A stretch of DNA of 64,000 nt from Candidatus Binatia bacterium. Its GTDB lineage: Bacteria > Desulfobacterota > Binatia > Bin18. Location: the NCBI GenBank assembly GCA_963664395.2, contig OY761159.2:3296001-3360000 (forward strand), given 5' to 3'. Shown piece after piece: positions 52,291 to 64,000 of this stretch (position 1 is its first letter; every line of letters starts with the position of its first letter). The notes under the pieces were generated by a model, which saw nothing but the letters and a program-made list of their open reading frames with translations, ran no database searches and was not told the DNA's origin. Position numbers and translations under genes: made by a program.

Positions 52291-53007
52291 ATGACAACCA
52301 CGAGTGCATTCCTCCAGGAAGTCGAAGTCAAGCTCCTCACCGATGACGTGTCGGTCTTCGATCAGATCGCGGCCCTCCCGCAGCTCGGTCCTTTTAGTCT
52401 TGAGCGCCGCCCGACTTTACAGTTGCAGACGACGTATCTGGATACGACGGGCTTCCTCATAGCACGCCATGCGCTTGCCCTGCGCCTTCGGCGGATAGGC
52501 GAGGCTGGTGAGGGGGGCTGGGAAGTTTCGACAAAAGGGCAGGGGCAGGTCACAGGGGCTATGCATGCCCGACCGGAACGGACGGTGGTGCTGCCCAGTG
52601 CTCCTGTCTTCCCATTCGTCCCGCCAGCAGAGTTAGCCGACGGTTTACCGACCGCCGCTCTCCGCCAGACGCTCGCTCCGATTCTGATTTCCGAGGTGAC
52701 ACGACAACGCTTGGCCATCAAGCGCAGCGCTGAACCACAGGAAAAATCGCTTGCAGAGGTGGCCCTCGATACGGCGCAGTATCGTGACCCGAAAGCGCCC
52801 GCGCGTGCCTTTGCCACGTTTTATGAAGTCGAAGTCGAGCTGGAAGCCGGTACGCAGGATGAGCTGAGACGCATCAGCCGTTTTCTCCAGGAGCATTTTC
52901 CCTTACACCCGTCACACGCTAATAAGCTCCAGCGTGGCCTGGCTCTTTTATATGGCCCAGGTGTGTGGAAAGTCCCCTATGCAAGCCCGCAGCAGTCAGG
53001 CGGGTGA
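52291..53007 (+). CDS. CYTH domain protein
   Basis: EVEVK (ExExK), YLDT, ALRLR, EVALD, EVEVEL, NKLQRGL. Confidence 0.88.
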   Translation: MTTTSAFLQEVEVKLLTDDVSVFDQIAALPQLGPFSLERRPTLQLQTTYLDTTGFLIARHALALRLRRIGEAGEGGWEVSTKGQGQVTGAMHARPERTVVLPSAPVFPFVPPAELADGLPTAALRQTLAPILISEVTRQRLAIKRSAEPQEKSLAEVALDTAQYRDPKAPARAFATFYEVEVELEAGTQDELRRISRFLQEHFPLHPSHANKLQRGLALLYGPGVWKVPYASPQQSGG

Positions 53008-53037
53008 GGTCCGGCCGTCCTCCTGCGTCGGCACGTT

Positions 53038-54534
53038 TTACGACCACGGGGCGACCTCGGCGATAAAATCCGTAAAAGTCGTATGGACTTCCGCGTGAAG
53101 CCTATCCTTCTGATTCTCGAACGTCTGCATCAGGATTTGGATCGTTCGAGCGGTTCGGTGCCTCTGGCGGGACGAACCTGATACTTCGTGAGCGAGTTCT
53201 TGCAGCATAGTCTGCTGAACATCAAGATCGTTGAGCTGGCCTAACACGTCCTGGAGGGTGCGCAGACGACGAATCGGTTCAGTTGTCAGCGCCTCGGGGA
53301 ACGCACTGGTAAAAAACTCGAACAAATAGCGGAGTTTCTTACATTCAATGCGGAGTCTATGCAGCCGTCGGGGGTCGCTCGCCTTGAGGGCGTCCGGTCG
53401 TATGGTGGTGACCACGCGCTGACACTGCTTGCGGATACATTTCCGGACAAGTTTTCCCAGCGTGTGGTCTGCCCGTGGTCCCTTGGCTTTCGTATCCGTT
53501 GCGACGGCTTCCCAGCGCTGGAGAATGCTCTCATATTGCTGTGTGTTCAGCGCTTCCACCAGACGGTGGTGCGTGGCGTAGCGTTCATACTGAACCGCGC
53601 GAAAGAGCGGTGCAATGTCCGGGCGCAGGTCCGGCGGGAGAGCGGCCAGATAGCCCGCCTGTTGAAGCAGAAACACGTCCAGATCGCGCAGGTGGTTGGT
53701 GAGGCTTCCCAAAAAGGACAAATCCTTGCGCAGGTGTTTGGTCAAGCGAACCGGCAATACCGCCGGCAGTTGGCCGAGCAAGGACCGGGCACGCCGAATG
53801 GCTACGCGAAAGTCGTGCAAAAACTCAGTATCAATATCGGAGAGGATGCCCGCCCGGTTCTGTCTGACTATGCCAAGCAGAAAGGCCAGAATTGTGCGCA
53901 CCGCGCTATCAGCCCGCATATCGGGCTCGAACCCAAACGCGAGTTTCGCAGAATAGGCGCGCGCCTGCTGGGCTGTATATAGGGTCGCCAGCGGACCGCT
54001 CGGAGAAACCGGAGTCAGGGCTAAGGAATCCAGCCATGCGCACAGCCCACCCGCCGACTCGGCATAAGACGAGACCTCGACCTGGGTCGGAAACGGGACG
54101 ATCCCTGCGTAGTCTTTGGCCGCGCTCTCTTCAAAGACAATATTCGCCACAGGTCGATGGGGGGCCGCCTGCTCCGCCAGCGCAAAATACGCGGCATGCA
54201 CGACCGCCCGCTCCATAAGCGCGCGGATTGAGACCAGCGGCAAGAGTTGCGCTTTGAGGGGACTCTCTACCCACTCGCCGACACAAGGCAGGAGCGCCGA
54301 GCAGGGCGTGCGTTCACCGACCGGACGGCTGTCCAGCGACCAGAGCGCAACCGTATCGTGCACCTGACACAAGGCCAGCTCACGCCGAAACAGGCGCCAG
54401 TCAAAGGTATCGAAATAGCGCCGCGTCTGGGTTCCTAAAGAGGTGAGATCAACGGAAAAACGCGCCTGCAATTGGCGCAGGAACTGGTCCTGGGTTATGT
54501 TCCCTGGCAAGCTATAGCGGGTCCGCATACTCAT
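53038..54534 (-). CDS. CHAD domain protein with degenerate CYTH-like N-terminus
   Basis: YFDTFDWRL; EFLHDFRVAIRR, RDLDV, LHRLRIECKKLRY..E, LQDVLGQLND. Confidence 0.9.
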   Translation of the reverse strand: MSMRTRYSLPGNITQDQFLRQLQARFSVDLTSLGTQTRRYFDTFDWRLFRRELALCQVHDTVALWSLDSRPVGERTPCSALLPCVGEWVESPLKAQLLPLVSIRALMERAVVHAAYFALAEQAAPHRPVANIVFEESAAKDYAGIVPFPTQVEVSSYAESAGGLCAWLDSLALTPVSPSGPLATLYTAQQARAYSAKLAFGFEPDMRADSAVRTILAFLLGIVRQNRAGILSDIDTEFLHDFRVAIRRARSLLGQLPAVLPVRLTKHLRKDLSFLGSLTNHLRDLDVFLLQQAGYLAALPPDLRPDIAPLFRAVQYERYATHHRLVEALNTQQYESILQRWEAVATDTKAKGPRADHTLGKLVRKCIRKQCQRVVTTIRPDALKASDPRRLHRLRIECKKLRYLFEFFTSAFPEALTTEPIRRLRTLQDVLGQLNDLDVQQTMLQELAHEVSGSSRQRHRTARTIQILMQTFENQKDRLHAEVHTTFTDFIAEVAPWS

Positions 54535-54620
54535 GTCCGACTCTTCTGTGTTATGAGACAGGCTCCTGAGCATCCCTGTAGTATAAAGACCTGTCAGGAC
54601 TAATAAAGGTAGCCCCAAAA

Positions 54621-54848: not shown

Positions 54849-54908
54849 TCTGTCTTGTCTGACAGGCCCGGACTGGTCTATAGAGGAGCGGGTATAAGGA
54901 TAGAAACT

Positions 54909-56360
54909 ATGGGAGCACGCACCGGAGCAGAGTTTACTGCGGGACTACGCGATAATCGAGAAGTCTGGCTGGGCAACGAGCGCGTCGAAGATGTGACCAC
55001 GCATCCGGCCTTTCGCGCCGCGGTCGAGAGTATTGCCCAGTTATACGACATGCAGCACGATCCGGCCTATCGGGACACGCTGTGCTATCCCTCGCCGACG
55101 AGCGGTAATCCGGTCGGGCTGTCGTTTCTGATCCCGCGCACGCGGGACGACCTGGTGCGGCGGCGGGCCATGAGTAAGGTCTGGGCGGACGCGACCTGCG
55201 GCATGATGGGCCGCAGTGCGGATTTTCTCAATGCCATGGTCACCGCCTGGGCGGCCAAGGCCGACTATTTTGCCCGGCAGAGTCCGGAGTGCCGGGAGCG
55301 CGTCCTGGACTATTATGAACATTGCCGCGAGAACGACCTGTTTCTCACCCATACCCTGGTTGATCCGCAAGTGGACCGCTCCAGGAACCGGGCCGAGCAG
55401 GACGATCCGCATCAGTGCCTCGGTATTGTAGACGAGACGGCTGAGGGGCTCGTTATTCGAGGCGCGAAAATGATTGCCACGGCCGCGCCGTTCGCCGATG
55501 AGATTCTGGCCTGGCCCTTTCCGCCAACCCTGACCGCAGCAGAGTCGGCCTATGCCATTGTCTTTATCATCCCGGTTGCCTCGCCGGGGCTGAAGATTAT
55601 TTGTCGCGAGTCTTTTACCCGACCTGGCCCGGTCGAAGATCATCCGCTGAGCGCCCGCTTTGACGAGATGGACGCAGTCGCGGTTTTTGACGATGTGCTT
55701 GTCCCCTGGCCGCGCGTTTTTTTGCACAAAGATGTCAATCTGGTCGGCCAGATGTACACCGGCACCCGCATTCGAGAATGGACGGCCCACCAGACCAATA
55801 CGCGGCTGTTGTCGAAGATCGAGTTTGTCTACGGCACGCTCAGCCTCATGGCTGAAGCCATCGGGGTCCAGGACAAACCCGTCGTACAAGAGACACTGGG
55901 CGAAGCGGCCAGCTACGTTGAAATCATTAAATCCATTCTCCTTGCAGCGGAACAAGAAGCCGAAATTGACCCTTCCAACGGGGCGATCTACCCTGCCCTC
56001 ACGCCCCTGCAAGTCGGACGGGTCTGGGGGCCGCGTATCTATCCGCGCTTGATGGAAATGATGCGCCGGATTGGAGCGGGCGGGCTGATGCAGTTGCCGG
56101 CCACATTTGCTTCCTTTGACGGGCCGACCGGGCCGGACCTGGAAAAATACTACCGCGGCGCCCACATCCCGGCCCAGGATAAAGTCCGGCTCTTTAAGCT
56201 GGCCTGGGACCTTGTCGGCTCTGATTTTGGCTCACGCCACGAGCTATACGAAATGTTCTATGCCGGCGATCCCAGCATGATTACGGCCGGCTTGCAGCGT
56301 GATTTCGACACCGCACGGTGTACGAACCGGGTGAAAGCATTTCTGGGTCTGGGAGAGTAG
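54909..56360 (+). CDS. hpaB: 4-hydroxyphenylacetate 3-monooxygenase-family oxygenase component
   Basis: VEDVTTHPAF, GMMGRSADF, DPQVDR, RGAKMIAT, HPLSARFDEMDA, FGSRHELYEMF. Confidence 0.88.
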   Translation: MGARTGAEFTAGLRDNREVWLGNERVEDVTTHPAFRAAVESIAQLYDMQHDPAYRDTLCYPSPTSGNPVGLSFLIPRTRDDLVRRRAMSKVWADATCGMMGRSADFLNAMVTAWAAKADYFARQSPECRERVLDYYEHCRENDLFLTHTLVDPQVDRSRNRAEQDDPHQCLGIVDETAEGLVIRGAKMIATAAPFADEILAWPFPPTLTAAESAYAIVFIIPVASPGLKIICRESFTRPGPVEDHPLSARFDEMDAVAVFDDVLVPWPRVFLHKDVNLVGQMYTGTRIREWTAHQTNTRLLSKIEFVYGTLSLMAEAIGVQDKPVVQETLGEAASYVEIIKSILLAAEQEAEIDPSNGAIYPALTPLQVGRVWGPRIYPRLMEMMRRIGAGGLMQLPATFASFDGPTGPDLEKYYRGAHIPAQDKVRLFKLAWDLVGSDFGSRHELYEMFYAGDPSMITAGLQRDFDTARCTNRVKAFLGLGE

Positions 56361-57987: not shown

Positions 57988-58095
57988 GCTACGTCTCCTT
58001 GTCCGCTGAGCAACCTCTGAGGCGTGTTTGAACCAACTGCCTGATTGGGGTATAGCTTATCCGAACGGAAAGCCCAAGAGAAGAAAACGAGCACC

Positions 58096-59157
58096 ATGCA
58101 CGCAAACACTGACAGTCTGAACGAAGATATCGACGCTATCGAATACTATTTCGAGCAGGGCGTCACCGACGGTCTGCCCGTTGTCCCACCAACCGAAGAA
58201 CGGATGCAACTCATGCTGGCCGCTACCTCACAGGCTGCGGACGAAGTTGTTGCACTCGTGCCGCCCAATTTTGGCGAAGCCTCGATTGAGAAGATCGCCG
58301 TGAATGCAGTCATGGCCGGCTGCAAGCCGGAATTCCTGCCGGTCGTTATTGCCGGTGTGCGGGCCATGTGTGACGAGCGGGCCAATCTGCATGGCGTGCA
58401 GGGCACCACCCACACGGCCACACCGCTGTTTATTATTAACGGCCCAGTCCGGCAGCAGCTTGATATTAATTGCGCCGCCGGCGTGTTTGGCTCAGGCTGG
58501 CGGGCCAACGCGACCATCGGCCGGGCACTCCGCCTGATCATGATTAATATCGGCGGTGCGTATCCGGGCGAAATCGATAAATCAACCATGGGCCATCCCG
58601 GCAAATACACCTATTGCATCGGCGAATACGAAGAACAGAACCCGTGGGAGCCGTTACATGTCGAGCACGGCTACGCGCCGGAGCAGAGCACCATCAGCGT
58701 CTATTGTTGCGACGCCCCACAGTGTGTGAGCAATCACGGCAGTCGCACGGCGCGCGGTATTCTGGACACCGTCGGGGCCAGCATGGCTGTCGGCTGGAGC
58801 GATAAGACCTATCTGGCCGGAAACTATATTGTCGTGCTCGGCCCGGAACACGCCAAAAGCATTGCGGCGGATGGCATGCGCAAACAGGACGTGAAGCGCT
58901 ATCTGTATGAAAACGTCCGGCGGCCTCTTCACGAACTGCTTCCCGGACCGGACGGCAGTGAGGGAGTGAGACGGGAAAGCCTGCCCGGCTGGCTAAACGC
59001 AACAGACGACTTCAGCCTTATCCCAAAAGTGTCCTCGCCGGACGGCATTATTCTTGTCGTGGCCGGCGGGACAGCCGGACGCTTTTCCGTGCATATGTGT
59101 GGCTGGGGTGGGGGCGCCGGCCAGAGTGAACTCGTGACCGTACCTATAGGGACATAA
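58096..59157 (+). CDS. Conserved partner protein of UGSC-type (seleno)proteins
   Basis: TDGLPVVPPT, EKIAVNAVMAGCKPE, RANATIGRALRL, GE.EE.NPWEPLH.E.G, VVAGG; directly upstream of the UGSC gene. Confidence 0.8.
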   Translation: MHANTDSLNEDIDAIEYYFEQGVTDGLPVVPPTEERMQLMLAATSQAADEVVALVPPNFGEASIEKIAVNAVMAGCKPEFLPVVIAGVRAMCDERANLHGVQGTTHTATPLFIINGPVRQQLDINCAAGVFGSGWRANATIGRALRLIMINIGGAYPGEIDKSTMGHPGKYTYCIGEYEEQNPWEPLHVEHGYAPEQSTISVYCCDAPQCVSNHGSRTARGILDTVGASMAVGWSDKTYLAGNYIVVLGPEHAKSIAADGMRKQDVKRYLYENVRRPLHELLPGPDGSEGVRRESLPGWLNATDDFSLIPKVSSPDGIILVVAGGTAGRFSVHMCGWGGGAGQSELVTVPIGT

Positions 59158-59180
59158 AGCACGCAAGAGGAGAAAGACAC

Positions 59181-59714
59181 ATGCCAAAACTCTATGACCC
59201 GACGGCAACCCCGAAACAAGCCACCGCGGCGCTCGCGGCCCGTTTACCGGACTTGCGAGGCAAGACGGTTGGTTTGCTCGATATCAGCAAGGCCAAGGGC
59301 AATTTTTTCCTGGACCGCGTAGAAGAGATGTTGACTGCGCAATTCCAGCCGCAGGCAATTATCCGGCGCATGAAGCCCACGTTTGCCCGTCCGGCGCCGG
59401 AAGACATACGCCAGGAACTGGCGCAAAAGTGCGACTTTCTGATTGAAGCCCTGGCCGATTGAGGCTCGTGTACAACGTGCAGTGTGCACGACGGAATCTT
59501 TTTTGAAAAAGCCGGTATCCCTTCGGCGGTGTTTGCCACGACCGAGTTTTCCAACGCGGCACTCGCTCAGGCCAAGGCGTTGGGCTTGCCGGATTTCAAG
59601 GTCATCTTGGTCGAACATCCTATTCAGCCCCTGACACCGGAAGAAGTCCACGGACGGGCGGAGGCGGTGTTCGGCCAGATGGTTGAAAAGGTGACGGGAC
59701 GAGCGGGCTCCTGA
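59181..59714 (+). CDS. UGSC-motif selenoprotein (177 aa, Sec94); split into two ORFs by the track
   Basis: In-frame TGA at 59460-59462: ALAD-U-GSCTTCSVHDG..EKAGIP; ORFs 59181 and 59484 share a frame; hairpin directly after the TGA. Confidence 0.9.
59466..59491 (+). promoter_or_regulatory. Candidate bacterial SECIS element
   Basis: TCGTGTACA pairs with TGTGCACGA (one G-U); it can close on a GUGCA apical loop whose G is 15 nt 3' of the UGA. Confidence 0.65.
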
Positions 59715-60121: not shown

Positions 60122-60153
60122 GGTAGGGGGCGACGCAGGCGTCGCCCCCTACC
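60122..60153. repeat. GTAG-type REP palindrome
   Basis: Perfect ggtagggggcgacgc-ag-gcgtcgccccctacc; overlaps the TAG stop of the large surface protein. Confidence 0.8.
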
Positions 60154-63100
60154 GAACATCCGTAATAACAAAGTTCTGGCTGTTCTGCTGCCACTCCAGT
60201 GTGACCGTCCCGCCCAGCATGGGAAAGTCCTCCGCCATACACTCGCCCTCGGCCCCCCGCAGAAACTCTTCCTCTGCCCCTTCCCCCACGGTCGTCACCC
60301 GCACCGTGGCCCGACCCAACTCGATGTCATCGACCCACGCTACCACCGTATGCTCCCCCTCCCCCAACAGGTTCCAGTTGAACAACAACCCAAACCCATT
60401 GTCCGTGTCCCCACACGCACCTTGGGTATCCACCCGCTCCGTCCCATACGCCGCCCCCTGCCGCCCGGCGGTCCCAATCGCAAGCTCGACCGTGTCGGCG
60501 TCACACACCCAGCCCGACAGTACCCGGACCCCACTCTGAAAGGAGTTATGACCCGGATTCTCCAGAAACCCGGTCAGTGCACTTGTCCGGCCCGGAGTGG
60601 CCCCAGCCGGGGGATTCCCGCCCGCAATGACGAAGTTCTGGCTGTTTTGCTGCCACACCAAGGTCACCCGTCTCGCCCACCACCGGAAAGTCCTCGGCCT
60701 CACACGTCCCCGTCTACCCCCCGCAGAAACTCCTGTCCCAGCGTCGTCACGGTCACAGTCGCCCGGTCCAACTCCACCCCATCCACCAGGGCCACGACTT
60801 CATGCTCCCCGTCTCTCAACAGGTTCCAGTTAAACAAGAGGCCAAAGCCATTGTCCGTGTCGCCACACGCCGGCAGCGTGTCTAGCCGCTCCGTCCCATA
60901 CGCCGCCTCCTGCGGTATCCCGTTCAACTCGATCTCCACCACCGCCGCCTCACACACCCAGCCCGAGAGCACGCCCACGCCACTCTGGAACGAATCGGCA
61001 CCGGGGTTCTCCAGATAGCCCTGCACGAAGGTGATTTCTAAGTCGTACGTCCCAGTCGCTCCCCCTTGCCCTTGTACGGCTACGACGACTGGGCCGGCCT
61101 GCACGAGGGCACCAAGCCGGTCGTTCTGCTGCCCCCCCGTGGGGCCGGACGCCACGACCACGTCGTTCTGCCAGATGGTCCCTCGGGTCGGCACTCCGCC
61201 GGTGGTGTCCACAAAGACGAGACCCCGGCCGGGGGCGGTGACGGTAAAATAATCCACATCTGCGGCGGGACAGATGGCGCCAGCAGTCACCGCAGACAGC
61301 GCACTGTCAGTGGCCTGTGCAGCGGTGTTGGCGTGCACGTCATCCTGCGTACAGGCTGGGGCCCCCACCGCCGCCCCCACCGCCGCTGCCCCCACCCACG
61401 CTGCCCCCACGATCAGGTGGCGGGGGAGGGGGCGGCGGAGAAGACGAGACGGTGATGAAGACGGGGATGTCGTCGGATTCCCCGGACGGGTCAGTGGCGA
61501 GCACGGTGAGTTGGTAGGTCTTGGATTCCTCAGCCCTCGCGCTTATCGTGCGCTGCCCGGGTGACCGCGTCACCGAGTTTGCACAGGGCGCCACCCCCTG
61601 TGGGCCCACCGCGATCTGGCCGCTGAGCCAGTCGATATCGAAACAGGCCGCAGCCGATTCCGTTTCGTCCAGGGTGTAGGTGAGCGGGTCACCAGGGTCC
61701 TCGGCCCTCACCGGAGCACCGACGCGACTCCCCGCTCTCGCGTTGGCTCCGATGGTGAGGGTGGGCGGGGACCCGGTAAATTCTGGGGGATCGTTATTGA
61801 CCCGCGCCTGTCGTACCGCATAGGGCGCAACGATCGGCGGGACGTGCTTGTCGGCCCCGGCCCCGTCGGTGTACGTCACTGTGACCCGCAGGTACGCGCC
61901 CACGTCGGCAGTCTCCGGCGTATAGCTGGCGGCGGGCGTCCCCTTGACGGGCTCCCAAGTCCGCTTGTTGTCCTGCGACTGCTCCCAGACCCAGTCGATG
62001 GAGACAAGGCCGTCGGGATCGGTCAGGATGGCGGTCAGCTCGGTATCGACCTGCGGCTGTACCGACGACAGGGTCAGGCTGCCCGCTTCGTCTTCGTTGG
62101 TCACGGTGACCGTCACGTCCAGCTCATCAGTAAACTCGTCATCGGAGGCTGTCACGGTCACGGAATAGCTATCCTTGGTCTCGTGGTCAGGCGGAGTACG
62201 GAAGCGCAGGACGCCGTCGCTGATGGTGAAGGCGGCGGAATCGACGGTCCACTGAATCGGGTCGCGCTCCGGGTCGGTGGCACGGTAGGTGGCAACCGGC
62301 CCCGTGGCGTGCTCCGTGTACGGGATATCGGTATCGGCTGGCCTGGTGATTTCCGGCCGCTCGTTCACGTCGGTGACGTTGACGGTGACGGTCTGTCGCG
62401 CGGTATGGCTCCCGGCGGAGGCTTCCACGGTCACGGTGTAGCGGGTGTCCGCCTCGTAGTCGGGCGGGTCGTTGAAGGTGAGGGTGGCGTCGGTGATGTT
62501 AGCGGTGAGGGTGAGAGAGTTTCGATCGACTCCTGTTAGCGCCCAGGTAATCGGCCAGGTAATCGGGTCGTGTTCGTGCTCCGGGTCGTCAGCGCTGAAG
62601 GTGTCAACTGGCCCCGTGTCGTTCTCCGCGTACGGGACGGCGCTCGGTCCCATCAGCGTGAGCGGTTCATCCTCATTTTCGACGGTGATGGTCACGTCGA
62701 TGGAGGCGGAGTCTCCGGAGGGGTCGGTGGCCGTCACGGTGACGGCGTAGCTCGACGTTTTCTCGCGGTCCAGCTCTGCTTTGGTCCGCAACTGGCCGGA
62801 CCTGCTGTCGATGGCGAAGACGCTATCGCCCGCAGCATCCAAAGAGTAAGTCAGCGGGTCGTCGGTGTCCGCGTCGGTAGCCACTATTGGGTCGCCGATA
62901 TTCCTCCCGGCTGCCGTGTTCTCCTGGACGCTGCGGGTCGTGGTGGCGTCCGAGAACAGCGGTACGTTGTTGTTGCCCCGTGCCGCTCGTACCCGGTTGG
63001 TGGCCTCGCGCTGGAAACTTTTGCTGCCGGGCTCCCCATGCCCGTCGGTGTAGGTCACCCTGACCCGCAGATAGTTGCTTATGTCGCCGGTCTCCGGCGT

Positions 63101-64000
63101 GTAGCTGTTCGAGGTCTCATCATCAATCTCCGTCCACGTACTCCTGTTCGAGGAACGCTCCCAGAGCCAGATGATGTCGGAGGCGCCGTCGGGATCGGTC
63201 AGGGTTGCGGTCAACTCGGCATCCACCTGCGGATACTCCGACGACAGGGTCAGGCTGCCCGCTTCGTCCAGGTTGTTGACGGTGACGGTGAGGGCCTGCG
63301 GCGTGGTGAGGTCTCCATCAGAGGCGACCACGGTCACTTCATAGTTGTTGTCGCCGTCAGCGTCGGCGCGCGCTTCGTAGTTGGGAGCGGGGCTGAAGTT
63401 CAGGACGCCGTTGCTGATGGTGAAGTCATCGGCGTCGGTTCCGGTCACTGTCCAGATGACTGTCGCACCCTCCGGGTCGGTGGCGGTGTAGCGGGCGACC
63501 TGGGCCGTGTTGTTCTCGGCATACGAGACCTCGGATGGGACCGGCGATCCCGTCAGCACGGGCGGTTCATCCACGCCGGTGACACGAATGGTGATGACCT
63601 GCGGTATGGTGTGAATCCCAGCGGCGGCTTGCACGGTCACCTCATAGACGTTGTTGCTACCGGCGTCGGCGGGTTGCTCGAAGTTGGGAGCGGTTGCGAA
63701 GCTCAGGGTGCCGCCGCTCATGGTGAAGTCGCCACGGTCGGTGCCGGCCAGTGACCAAGTGACTGACTCGTTCTCCTCCAGGTCGGTGACGCTGTATTCC
63801 GCAACCGACCCGATGCCGTTCTCGGCATACGACGGAACGCGGCTCAGCTCCGTCAGCGTGTGCACTTCCTCCACGTTGGTGACAGTGACGGTGACGGGCA
63901 GTGTAGCGGGGCTGGTGGTCCCATCCGAGGCGACCACGGTCACTTCATAGACATTGTTGTGGTTGGGATCCTCATAGTTGGGAGCGGAGTCGAAGCTCAG
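60149..64000 (-). CDS. Large cadherin/Ig-repeat surface protein, 5'-partial, frameshifted three times in this sequence
   Basis: Frame open from 64000; repeats L.F...P.YE...N.YEVTV.A.D, VTNEDE.G, LTDPDG...W.WE, ENTAAG..IG.P..ATD.D; Pro/Gly linker; PPC-like DVDYF domain; two C-terminal LENPG..SFQSG repeats; homology continues across ORFs 61340-63943, 60700-61410 and 60149-60703. Confidence 0.85.

Follow-up and report, generated by a model that had tools for sequence, protein, structure and literature searches.

A UGSC-family selenoprotein and its near-constant partner in a Candidatus Binatia bacterium: candidate subunits of a selenium-dependent reductase

In a stretch of 64,000 nucleotides from a Candidatus Binatia bacterium (GenBank assembly GCA_963664395.2, contig OY761159.2, positions 3,296,001 to 3,360,000 of the forward strand; hereafter the window), a reading frame split by an in-frame UGA belongs to a selenoprotein of the UGSC family, and the 353-amino-acid (aa) product of the gene directly upstream is a near-constant companion of that family. 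At a probability of about 0.55, the two genes are judged to encode two subunits of one selenium-dependent reductase, with the partner as catalytic subunit and the UGSC protein as redox subunit.

The UGSC selenoprotein itself is not new; it is an ordinary member of a catalogued family. A first-pass annotation of this DNA described it as hidden, a description that does not hold, as the family has been in print since 2007–2008 and has both Pfam and NCBIfam models. A 2007 paper on Olavius, in which Hyphomonas neptunium is given as a carrier of UGSC, named it ‘a selenoprotein of unknown function’ (PMC1976440), and the 2008 Global Ocean Sampling (GOS) survey counted 255 forms with selenocysteine (Sec) and 21 with Cys, placed UGSC among the most abundant selenoprotein families of ocean and freshwater metagenomes and classed it with redox proteins, suggesting a thioredoxin-like fold and, in its accessible text, giving no function (PMC2398784). 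The accessible text of a 2022 review likewise lists the family with no function (PMC9312934), and that of a 2026 review counts it as one of the selenoproteins still largely without functional characterisation (PMC13188914). The first-pass annotation had likewise described UGSC-motif selenoproteins as recorded in surveys with no assigned function. The published work on UGSC that was found, in a search without most subscription journals, consists of sequence surveys only. One of them mentions a single ‘UGSC/Unknown_1 fusion’ in its accessible text (PMC2398784), in which Unknown_1 may be the family of the 353-aa partner. The systematic partnership, the link to thioredoxin reductase (TrxR) and the tie to PrdB described below are real findings of sequence comparison that were not met with in the accessible part of this literature, and the partnership is more interesting than the selenoprotein itself.

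The gene pair and its read-through frame

The features of the pair are as follows.

58096..59157, plus strand: partner gene, 353 aa (open reading frame and translation)
59165..59173, plus strand: Shine-Dalgarno-like AAGAGGAGA, 8 nt before the selenoprotein ATG (read directly from the sequence)
59181..59714, plus strand: UGSC-family selenoprotein gene, 177 aa, with Sec94 and terminal TGA at 59712-59714 (read-through translation)
59460..59462, plus strand: UGA read as selenocysteine U94, first residue of the redox motif U94-G-S-C97
59476..59490, plus strand: family-conserved core of the selenocysteine insertion sequence (SECIS), a 6-bp stem 59476-59481/59485-59490 with loop GUG at 59482-59484 (covariation, AGT loop bias)
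59466..59491, plus strand: longer alternative hairpin whose 3' arm is common with the SECIS core (RNAfold)

The frame that opens at 59181 meets a TGA at 59460-59462 and then continues in phase without a further stop until the TGA at 59712-59714; with the first TGA read as Sec it yields a protein of 177 aa containing ...EALAD-U-G-S-C-T-T-C-S-V-H-D.... The first-pass annotation had joined the open reading frames (ORFs) 59181-59462 and 59484-59714 in this way through GAT TGA GGC TCG TGT ACA ACG TGC (D-U-G-S-C-T-T-C) and had put the end of the 353-aa gene 23 nt 5' of the selenoprotein ATG; sequence and read-through translation agree with both statements, and all of its coordinates are correct. The 23-nt gap between the partner gene and the ATG at 59181 holds AAGAGGAGA, and a TTG at 58045 is an alternative start for the partner gene. 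Promoter and terminator scans gave nothing better than shuffled sequence.

Evidence that the UGA encodes selenocysteine

The read-through protein scores 161.9 bits against the NCBIfam model NF041046, ‘UGSC family (seleno)protein’ (cut-off 125), and 171.6 bits against PF24696 of Pfam (cut-off 25; E 2.2e-50), matching model positions 2-171 of 172. As a member of what Zhang and Gladyshev called the ‘UGSC-containing protein’ it is a plain one, with the motif, the in-frame UGA and the SECIS element, and nothing in the window gene itself differs from the family. When this gene was aligned with 62 homologues found beside partner genes, the site codon proved to be TGA in 61 of the 63 and a Cys codon (TGC) in two, one of them from Natrialba asiatica, with conservation on both flanks; the motif over the alignment is U-G-[SAGT]-[CS]. 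Six of six UGSC matches in the bacterium's own genome contain exactly one in-frame TGA. The same genome carries the Sec machinery, with selA (596.3 bits), selD (316.3 bits) and selB (389.8 bits) all above curated cut-offs and a tRNA-Sec (anticodon tca) a few hundred bases from selA. The selD match (L002, G000:C1:4506291-4507208) lies within an open frame of 759 aa and may be a fused SelD form of the Ndh-SelD type that the accessible text of PMC2398784 describes.

That the TGA is a true stop or a sequencing error, leaving two small unrelated ORFs or a pseudogene, is a reading of negligible probability. It can point to the hairpin downstream, which taken alone is not significant, but it is already contradicted by the comparative data: the TGA recurs at the site in nearly every aligned gene with conservation on both sides, the covariation of the SECIS element described below supports decoding, and all the Sec genes are present. 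The codon is also spanned by contigs from four public runs with no difference listed at it, among contig sets of which two show 29 differences elsewhere (44 less-supported contig differences fall outside the listing). A contig from an RNA library (X15) spans the gene as well, which does not prove transcription. On comparative grounds, then, the split frame is a genuine selenoprotein gene whose UGA is decoded as Sec, as the first-pass annotation had proposed.

A side observation concerns the 48 bases around the TGA and SECIS (window 59445-59492), which form a depth peak in all four runs. Many contigs from paralogues or other organisms match only there, and this segment is therefore taken as the most conserved nucleotide segment of the gene.

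The SECIS hairpin

Bacterial SECIS elements are hairpins shortly 3' of the UGA with G/U in the apical loop, and it is the G/U loop that SelB recognises. The hairpin of 9-10 bp that had been noted 3 nt after the TGA is present (59466-59491; 9+1 pairs, -12.1 kcal/mol); considered alone, however, the 66-nt stretch is not beyond chance (z = -1.34; 16 of 200 shuffles fold as well), and RNAfold predicts the long form only for the window, for L014-L016, L022 and L029 and for a few others. What the family conserves is the shorter hairpin at 59476-59490 (-7.4 kcal/mol in the window), corresponding to alignment columns 17-22 paired with 26-31 around a loop G-U-N. Its pair 21-27 is C-G in 41 of the 63 aligned genes and G-C in 19, pairs 18-30 and 19-29 show double changes too, and the covariation score was reached by none of 500 shuffles, with all slid registers far lower. 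Through the C-G/G-C swap, a change between Cys and Trp in the protein is tied to the third base of a Val/Ile codon two codons on. In the loop, 54 of the 61 TGA genes have the codon AGT and 59 have NGT, whereas AGT is used for only 19 of 366 Ser codons in the rest of these genes; both Cys forms have AGC or TGC at the loop codon and so lose the GU. Since comparison across the family shows compensatory changes, the hairpin is considered real despite its weak fold as a single sequence.

Coupling of the selenoprotein with its partner

Among 79 partner loci in named genome records, UGSC lies directly beside the partner and on the same strand in 60, and a profile search of the 79 loci recovered the same 60. 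Both gene orders occur: UGSC is downstream of the partner in most loci and upstream in others, and some loci have two or three copies of each. The reverse test was uniform, in that each of 30 UGSC loci, drawn from 11 genomes among 101 of the phylum, has a partner either next to it or joined to it in one frame. The bacterium's own genome has six UGSC and six partner genes, pairwise adjacent. Natural fusions are also found: among the 150 best UGSC representatives, 13 consist of one chain in which the partner follows UGSC, and in seven loci with UGSC-partner fusions the Sec codon is the only TGA of the whole frame. Judged by gene order and fusion, the partner is a near-constant companion of UGSC and the two families are genetically coupled. 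The first-pass annotation's view of the TDGLP-motif gene as a dedicated partner is thus upheld by synteny and by fusions of the two genes alike.

Two further observations belong here. One genome of the same phylum (G034; L118, L123, L127-L133) has 11 UGSC matches, mostly in frames of 580-607 aa that represent fused UGSC-partner selenoproteins, and divergent motifs U-S-T-C, U-S-S-C, U-D-G-C and U-P-G-C occur there. An apparent fusion in the order partner then UGSC (P0142) was an Arg-rich wrong-frame translation and was discarded.

Electron supply

Long relatives of the partner (n = 79, 619-2000 aa) point to a source of electrons. Thirty-seven of them carry domains of pyridine-nucleotide disulfide oxidoreductases, that is, TrxR-like flavoprotein domains; 23 carry PF24696, two a peroxiredoxin/redoxin domain and four other domains, and 13 have no other domain, seven of these being partner-partner tandems. 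The partner is N-terminal in 33 of the 37 TrxR-like fusions and C-terminal in four, and each of the 37 has one CxxC motif (CAVC, CATC, CADC or similar). A metagenome scan with one partner::TrxR fusion gave 13 loci: all seven with a 5' end and upstream DNA have a Sec-encoding UGSC gene directly upstream, two more distant ones have UGSC downstream, and four are uninformative.

TrxR/thioredoxin relays with fused components are familiar from AhpF-AhpC and NTRC. The likeness to the present system lies in a flavoprotein with one CxxC that is fused with, or encoded beside, a target enzyme and a small protein bearing a dithiol (here a selenol-thiol pair); the differences are that UGSC carries Sec and is not thioredoxin-fold in its model, and that the target enzyme here is an unnamed family with no clear solved relative.

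It is improbable that UGSC is a mere thioredoxin-like electron carrier or antioxidant, with the partner as a client or as a maturation or repair factor. Such a role would suit the UxxC at the N-terminus of a helix, as in thiol oxidoreductases, and the classing of UGSC with redox proteins in surveys (accessible text of PMC2398784), and a chain of TrxR, carrier and target may be fused in any pair. A general carrier, however, is not expected to be tied to one family in every UGSC locus of the reverse test and in six pairs per genome, and the many invariant polar residues of the partner are of the kind found in active sites. The repeated fusions to an NAD(P)H-flavoprotein disulfide reductase, in 37 of 79 long relatives, point to net electron input, and they speak against a pair that is not a reductase at all but an S/Se transfer pair or an isomerase, with Cys76 of the partner and Sec94 as carrier or acid-base pair. 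This last idea is highly improbable; in its favour are the single invariant Cys facing a Sec/Cys motif and the resemblance of a partner subdomain to YjgF/RidA and MmgE/PrpD-type modules, which occur in non-redox enzymes (Z ~5), structural matches that are themselves weak.

The genes around the pairs were scanned for 86 ORFs at the six own-genome pairs and for 83 of 166 same-strand neighbours at other loci. They include luciferase-like monooxygenases, Amidohydro_2, cyclase, BKACE, SDR, CoA-transferase III, HpaB, MFS and pyridoxal phosphate (PLP) decarboxylase genes, and no third constant gene was found among those scanned. Paralogue expansions and varied neighbours together suggest many small-molecule substrates. 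Three of the own-genome pairs on G000:C1 (L093-L104; L105-L109) stand in apparent catabolic operons, which read MFS, partner, UGSC and PLP decarboxylase in the first; partner, UGSC, Amidohydro_2, luciferase-like monooxygenase and Amidohydro_2 in the second; and cyclase, partner and UGSC in the third.

The partner family

No Pfam or NCBIfam family matched the partner protein. Its relatives make up 7999 of 8000 scored candidates, and the best 120 have no Pfam domain and only the name ‘hypothetical’; a protein atlas lists clusters with no common Pfam family, one of them under the automatic name ‘Thioredoxin (Fragment) family protein’. Across 258 partner domains the invariant core comprises D25-G-L-P, P32, A-G-C76, T105, G116, R136-A-N138, G142-R143, E177 and W184, Cys76 being retained in 249. 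The model of the partner has a predicted local distance difference test (pLDDT) score of 80.5 and a predicted template modelling (pTM) score of 0.83, with two low-confidence loops that contain conserved residues. Foldseek matched it to class I fumarate hydratase only at E ~6e-4 to 2e-3, with template modelling (TM) scores of 0.2-0.3, and to Toblerone-fold hydrolases at E ~0.3, elsewhere at Z ~5 over ~160 residues. VIA structure searches gave best Z values of 6.4 and 5.2, for residues ~205-340 only, the region that YjgF/RidA-like modules match at Z 5-6. No function is drawn from these weak fold matches to a predicted structure. Searching the Protein Data Bank with profiles of the partner, the UGSC protein and the PrdB-like proteins brought up no meaningful match.

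Two variants of the partner were observed. Tandem double partner domains occur in seven long relatives (P0396, P0399, P0407, P0409, P0414, P0418 and P0431), an arrangement of sequence that hints at a partner acting as a dimer. A subgroup of six records (L028, L030, L032, L034, L040 and L051), four of them titled Poribacteria, is missing a segment of the partner at about residues 277-313, and no UGSC lies within 4 kb of it; PhyH/HEAT, aldo-keto reductase and POR genes are among those nearby.

Predicted fold of the UGSC protein and its probable relation to PrdB and GrdB

The AlphaFold2 model of the UGSC protein (pLDDT 96.6) consists of five beta-alpha units, in which strand 86-92 leads into a helix that begins with Sec94. 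Cys97, Cys100 and His103 come after it at intervals of three residues, a spacing by which they should lie on one face of the predicted helix. The best matches to the model are azoreductase, WrbA, CheY, periplasmic-binding and TIR-type alpha/beta domains, with TM 0.4-0.5 in one search and Z 9-11 in another. The protein thus models as Rossmann/flavodoxin-like, whereas the accessible text of the UGSC literature suggests a thioredoxin-like fold; no thioredoxin is among the structural matches listed, which does not exclude membership of the thioredoxin family.

A remote kinship with the Sec subunits of D-proline and glycine reductases is probable. In PrdB/GrdB as in UGSC, Sec sits where a beta-strand ends and a helix begins, and E-x-x-G-I-P-T, a strand and an H-P loop come after it; the short PrdB-like proteins have UxxC, as UGSC has, and UGSC, like those reductases, probably draws on a thioredoxin-type electron supply. 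Compared with the proteins of PF07355 (D-proline and glycine/sarcosine/betaine reductases), UGSC is half the size and is without the N-terminal PF07355 region. PF07355 did not match the window protein at E <= 0.1 or any of 54 UGSC members at E <= 1. When the alignment of 54 UGSC sequences was compared by hhalign with one of 43 PrdB-like/GrdB-type sequences (three GrdB-type loci, L149-L151, were left out, having been missed by the motif pattern), the match had a probability of 74.5% and E 2.7e-5, with a score of 41.1 over 70 columns, against 13.2 for the reversed alignment and at most 19.9 for 30 column shuffles, a lenient control. Sec fell on Sec in every run, and the match was weak when one or 17 PrdB-like sequences were used (probability 0.7-5%; 4.95% with 17). 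Because the shuffle control is lenient, the result is read as remote homology of the Sec-bearing half and not as membership: the Sec-bearing half of UGSC is probably a remote homologue of PrdB-like selenoproteins. The first-pass annotation's GrdB/PrdB-like Sec nucleophile accordingly stands in so far as the profiles align Sec on Sec, and is unsupported in so far as no UGSC member matches PF07355 directly.

The bacterium's own genome also encodes two PF07355-type selenoproteins, ...LLVPV-U-PVC-HQSVGLIARHVEAAGIPT... and ...LLTPV-U-PLC-.... The genes of these two PrdB-like proteins (L134:1393-2340 and L135:1420-2574) lie outside the window and are split by an in-frame TGA, at U179 and U149 respectively; the ORF lists, which cover part of each locus, show no GrdE/PrdA-type or partner-type gene alongside them. 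At the Sec site, TGA is present in every one of the 31 PF07355-type loci examined in the phylum; the short PrdB-like proteins read U-[PG]-x-C and the GrdB-type ones U-G-[TS]-x-x-R-C. The resemblance to a UxxCxxC motif of GrdB that had been proposed for the window protein is not borne out, as the GrdB-type genes of the phylum read otherwise and the third Cys of U-G-S-C-T-T-C alternates with Trp among aligned UGSC homologues.

A stricter analogy would make UGSC a Sec nucleophile of the PrdB/GrdB type, breaking a C-N (or C-X) bond in a substrate that has been activated on the partner, and the partner would then stand in for the pyruvoyl proprotein PrdA/GrdE. This is a serious but unlikely contender. 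The profile match with its aligned Sec residues argues for it, as do the E-x-x-G-[IV]-P-[TS] common to UGSC and PrdB-like proteins after the Sec helix, the TrxR link, which parallels grd operons holding thioredoxin, and the amidohydrolase-rich contexts, cyclase and PLP decarboxylase, which fit amine substrates. It is opposed by the absence of PF07355 matches among the UGSC members, by the leniency of the shuffle control and by the partner, which shows no likeness to GrdE/PrdA: it does not match PF09338 (GrdE/PrdA), its profile scores 14.7 against four GrdE-type proteins, below the reversed control of 16.1, and no self-cleavage site is evident in it. The pairing differs too, for the true GrdB-type genes of the phylum have a PF09338 gene upstream in four of four loci. 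Proline-reductase-like C-N cleavage is best regarded as a narrower version of the reductase model, one that the data allow but do not show.

A proposed mechanism for the pair

In the reductase favoured here, the partner would be the substrate-binding, catalytic subunit, with its one nearly universal Cys76, and UGSC would be the redox subunit that supplies the selenol/thiol pair U94 and C97. The selenolate would attack the substrate, or an adduct of Cys76, held by the partner; Cys97 would resolve the intermediate to give a selenenylsulfide; and a TrxR-type flavoprotein, or thioredoxin, with NAD(P)H would regenerate the reduced pair. In this scheme we infer that the two proteins bind each other, which way the electrons flow, what part Cys76 plays and what type of reaction takes place, including the ‘reductive cleavage’ put forward in the first-pass annotation. 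The substrate probably differs among paralogues.

Several observations weigh against this scheme. In 19 of the 79 partner loci, among them those of the Poribacteria subgroup with the shortened partner, UGSC is absent within up to 4 kb; at least ten of the 19 are flanked on either side by ~3.8 kb or more of DNA, so that the partner can evidently stand without an adjacent UGSC. The proposed active-site residues are not universal: Ala replaces Cys76 in five of 24 UGSC-fused partner domains, and three UGSC homologues are without Cys97 (U-G-[ST]-S). No solved structure is convincingly related to the partner (best Z 6.4, one subdomain, TM ~0.2-0.3), so its chemistry is not readable from the fold, and the neighbouring genes vary widely and name no substrate. 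Finally, none of the six own-genome pairs has a TrxR or thioredoxin gene within ~7 kb, and only a DsbA-like gene is located near one of them; in this genome a general reducing system would therefore have to serve.

A broader proposal, tentative and put at a little short of an even chance, is that UGSC, the 350-aa family and TrxR-like donors form a large undescribed superfamily of selenium-dependent reductases, an offshoot of the PrdB/GrdB Sec domain that recruited a catalytic subunit lacking any clear solved relative and diversified by paralogy for many small molecules; the extent of paralogy is seen in the six pairs of the own genome and the 11 UGSC matches of a relative. Were this so, one of the commonest environmental selenoproteins would have a function that could be tested directly. 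To the existing picture of the family are added a near-obligate partner enzyme, a recurrent electron donor of the thioredoxin-reductase type, a likely evolutionary tie to PrdB and a model that is Rossmann/flavodoxin-like and not thioredoxin-like. An orphan selenoprotein would in this way turn into a defined two- or three-component system, open to expression, reconstitution and substrate screening.

Other features of the window

Upstream of the pair, a CYTH-domain gene (plus strand) adjoins a CHAD-domain gene (minus strand) at 52291-54618, and these two lie upstream of an HpaB-type monooxygenase gene (54855-56360). Downstream, on the minus strand, adjacent paralogous ORFs of 184 and 236 aa (60149-61410 and 61340-64000) have in common the segment ...SFQSGV.VLSGWVC...GFGLLFNWNLL..., and next to this ORF pair lies a very large protein with cadherin repeats, which extends beyond the window.

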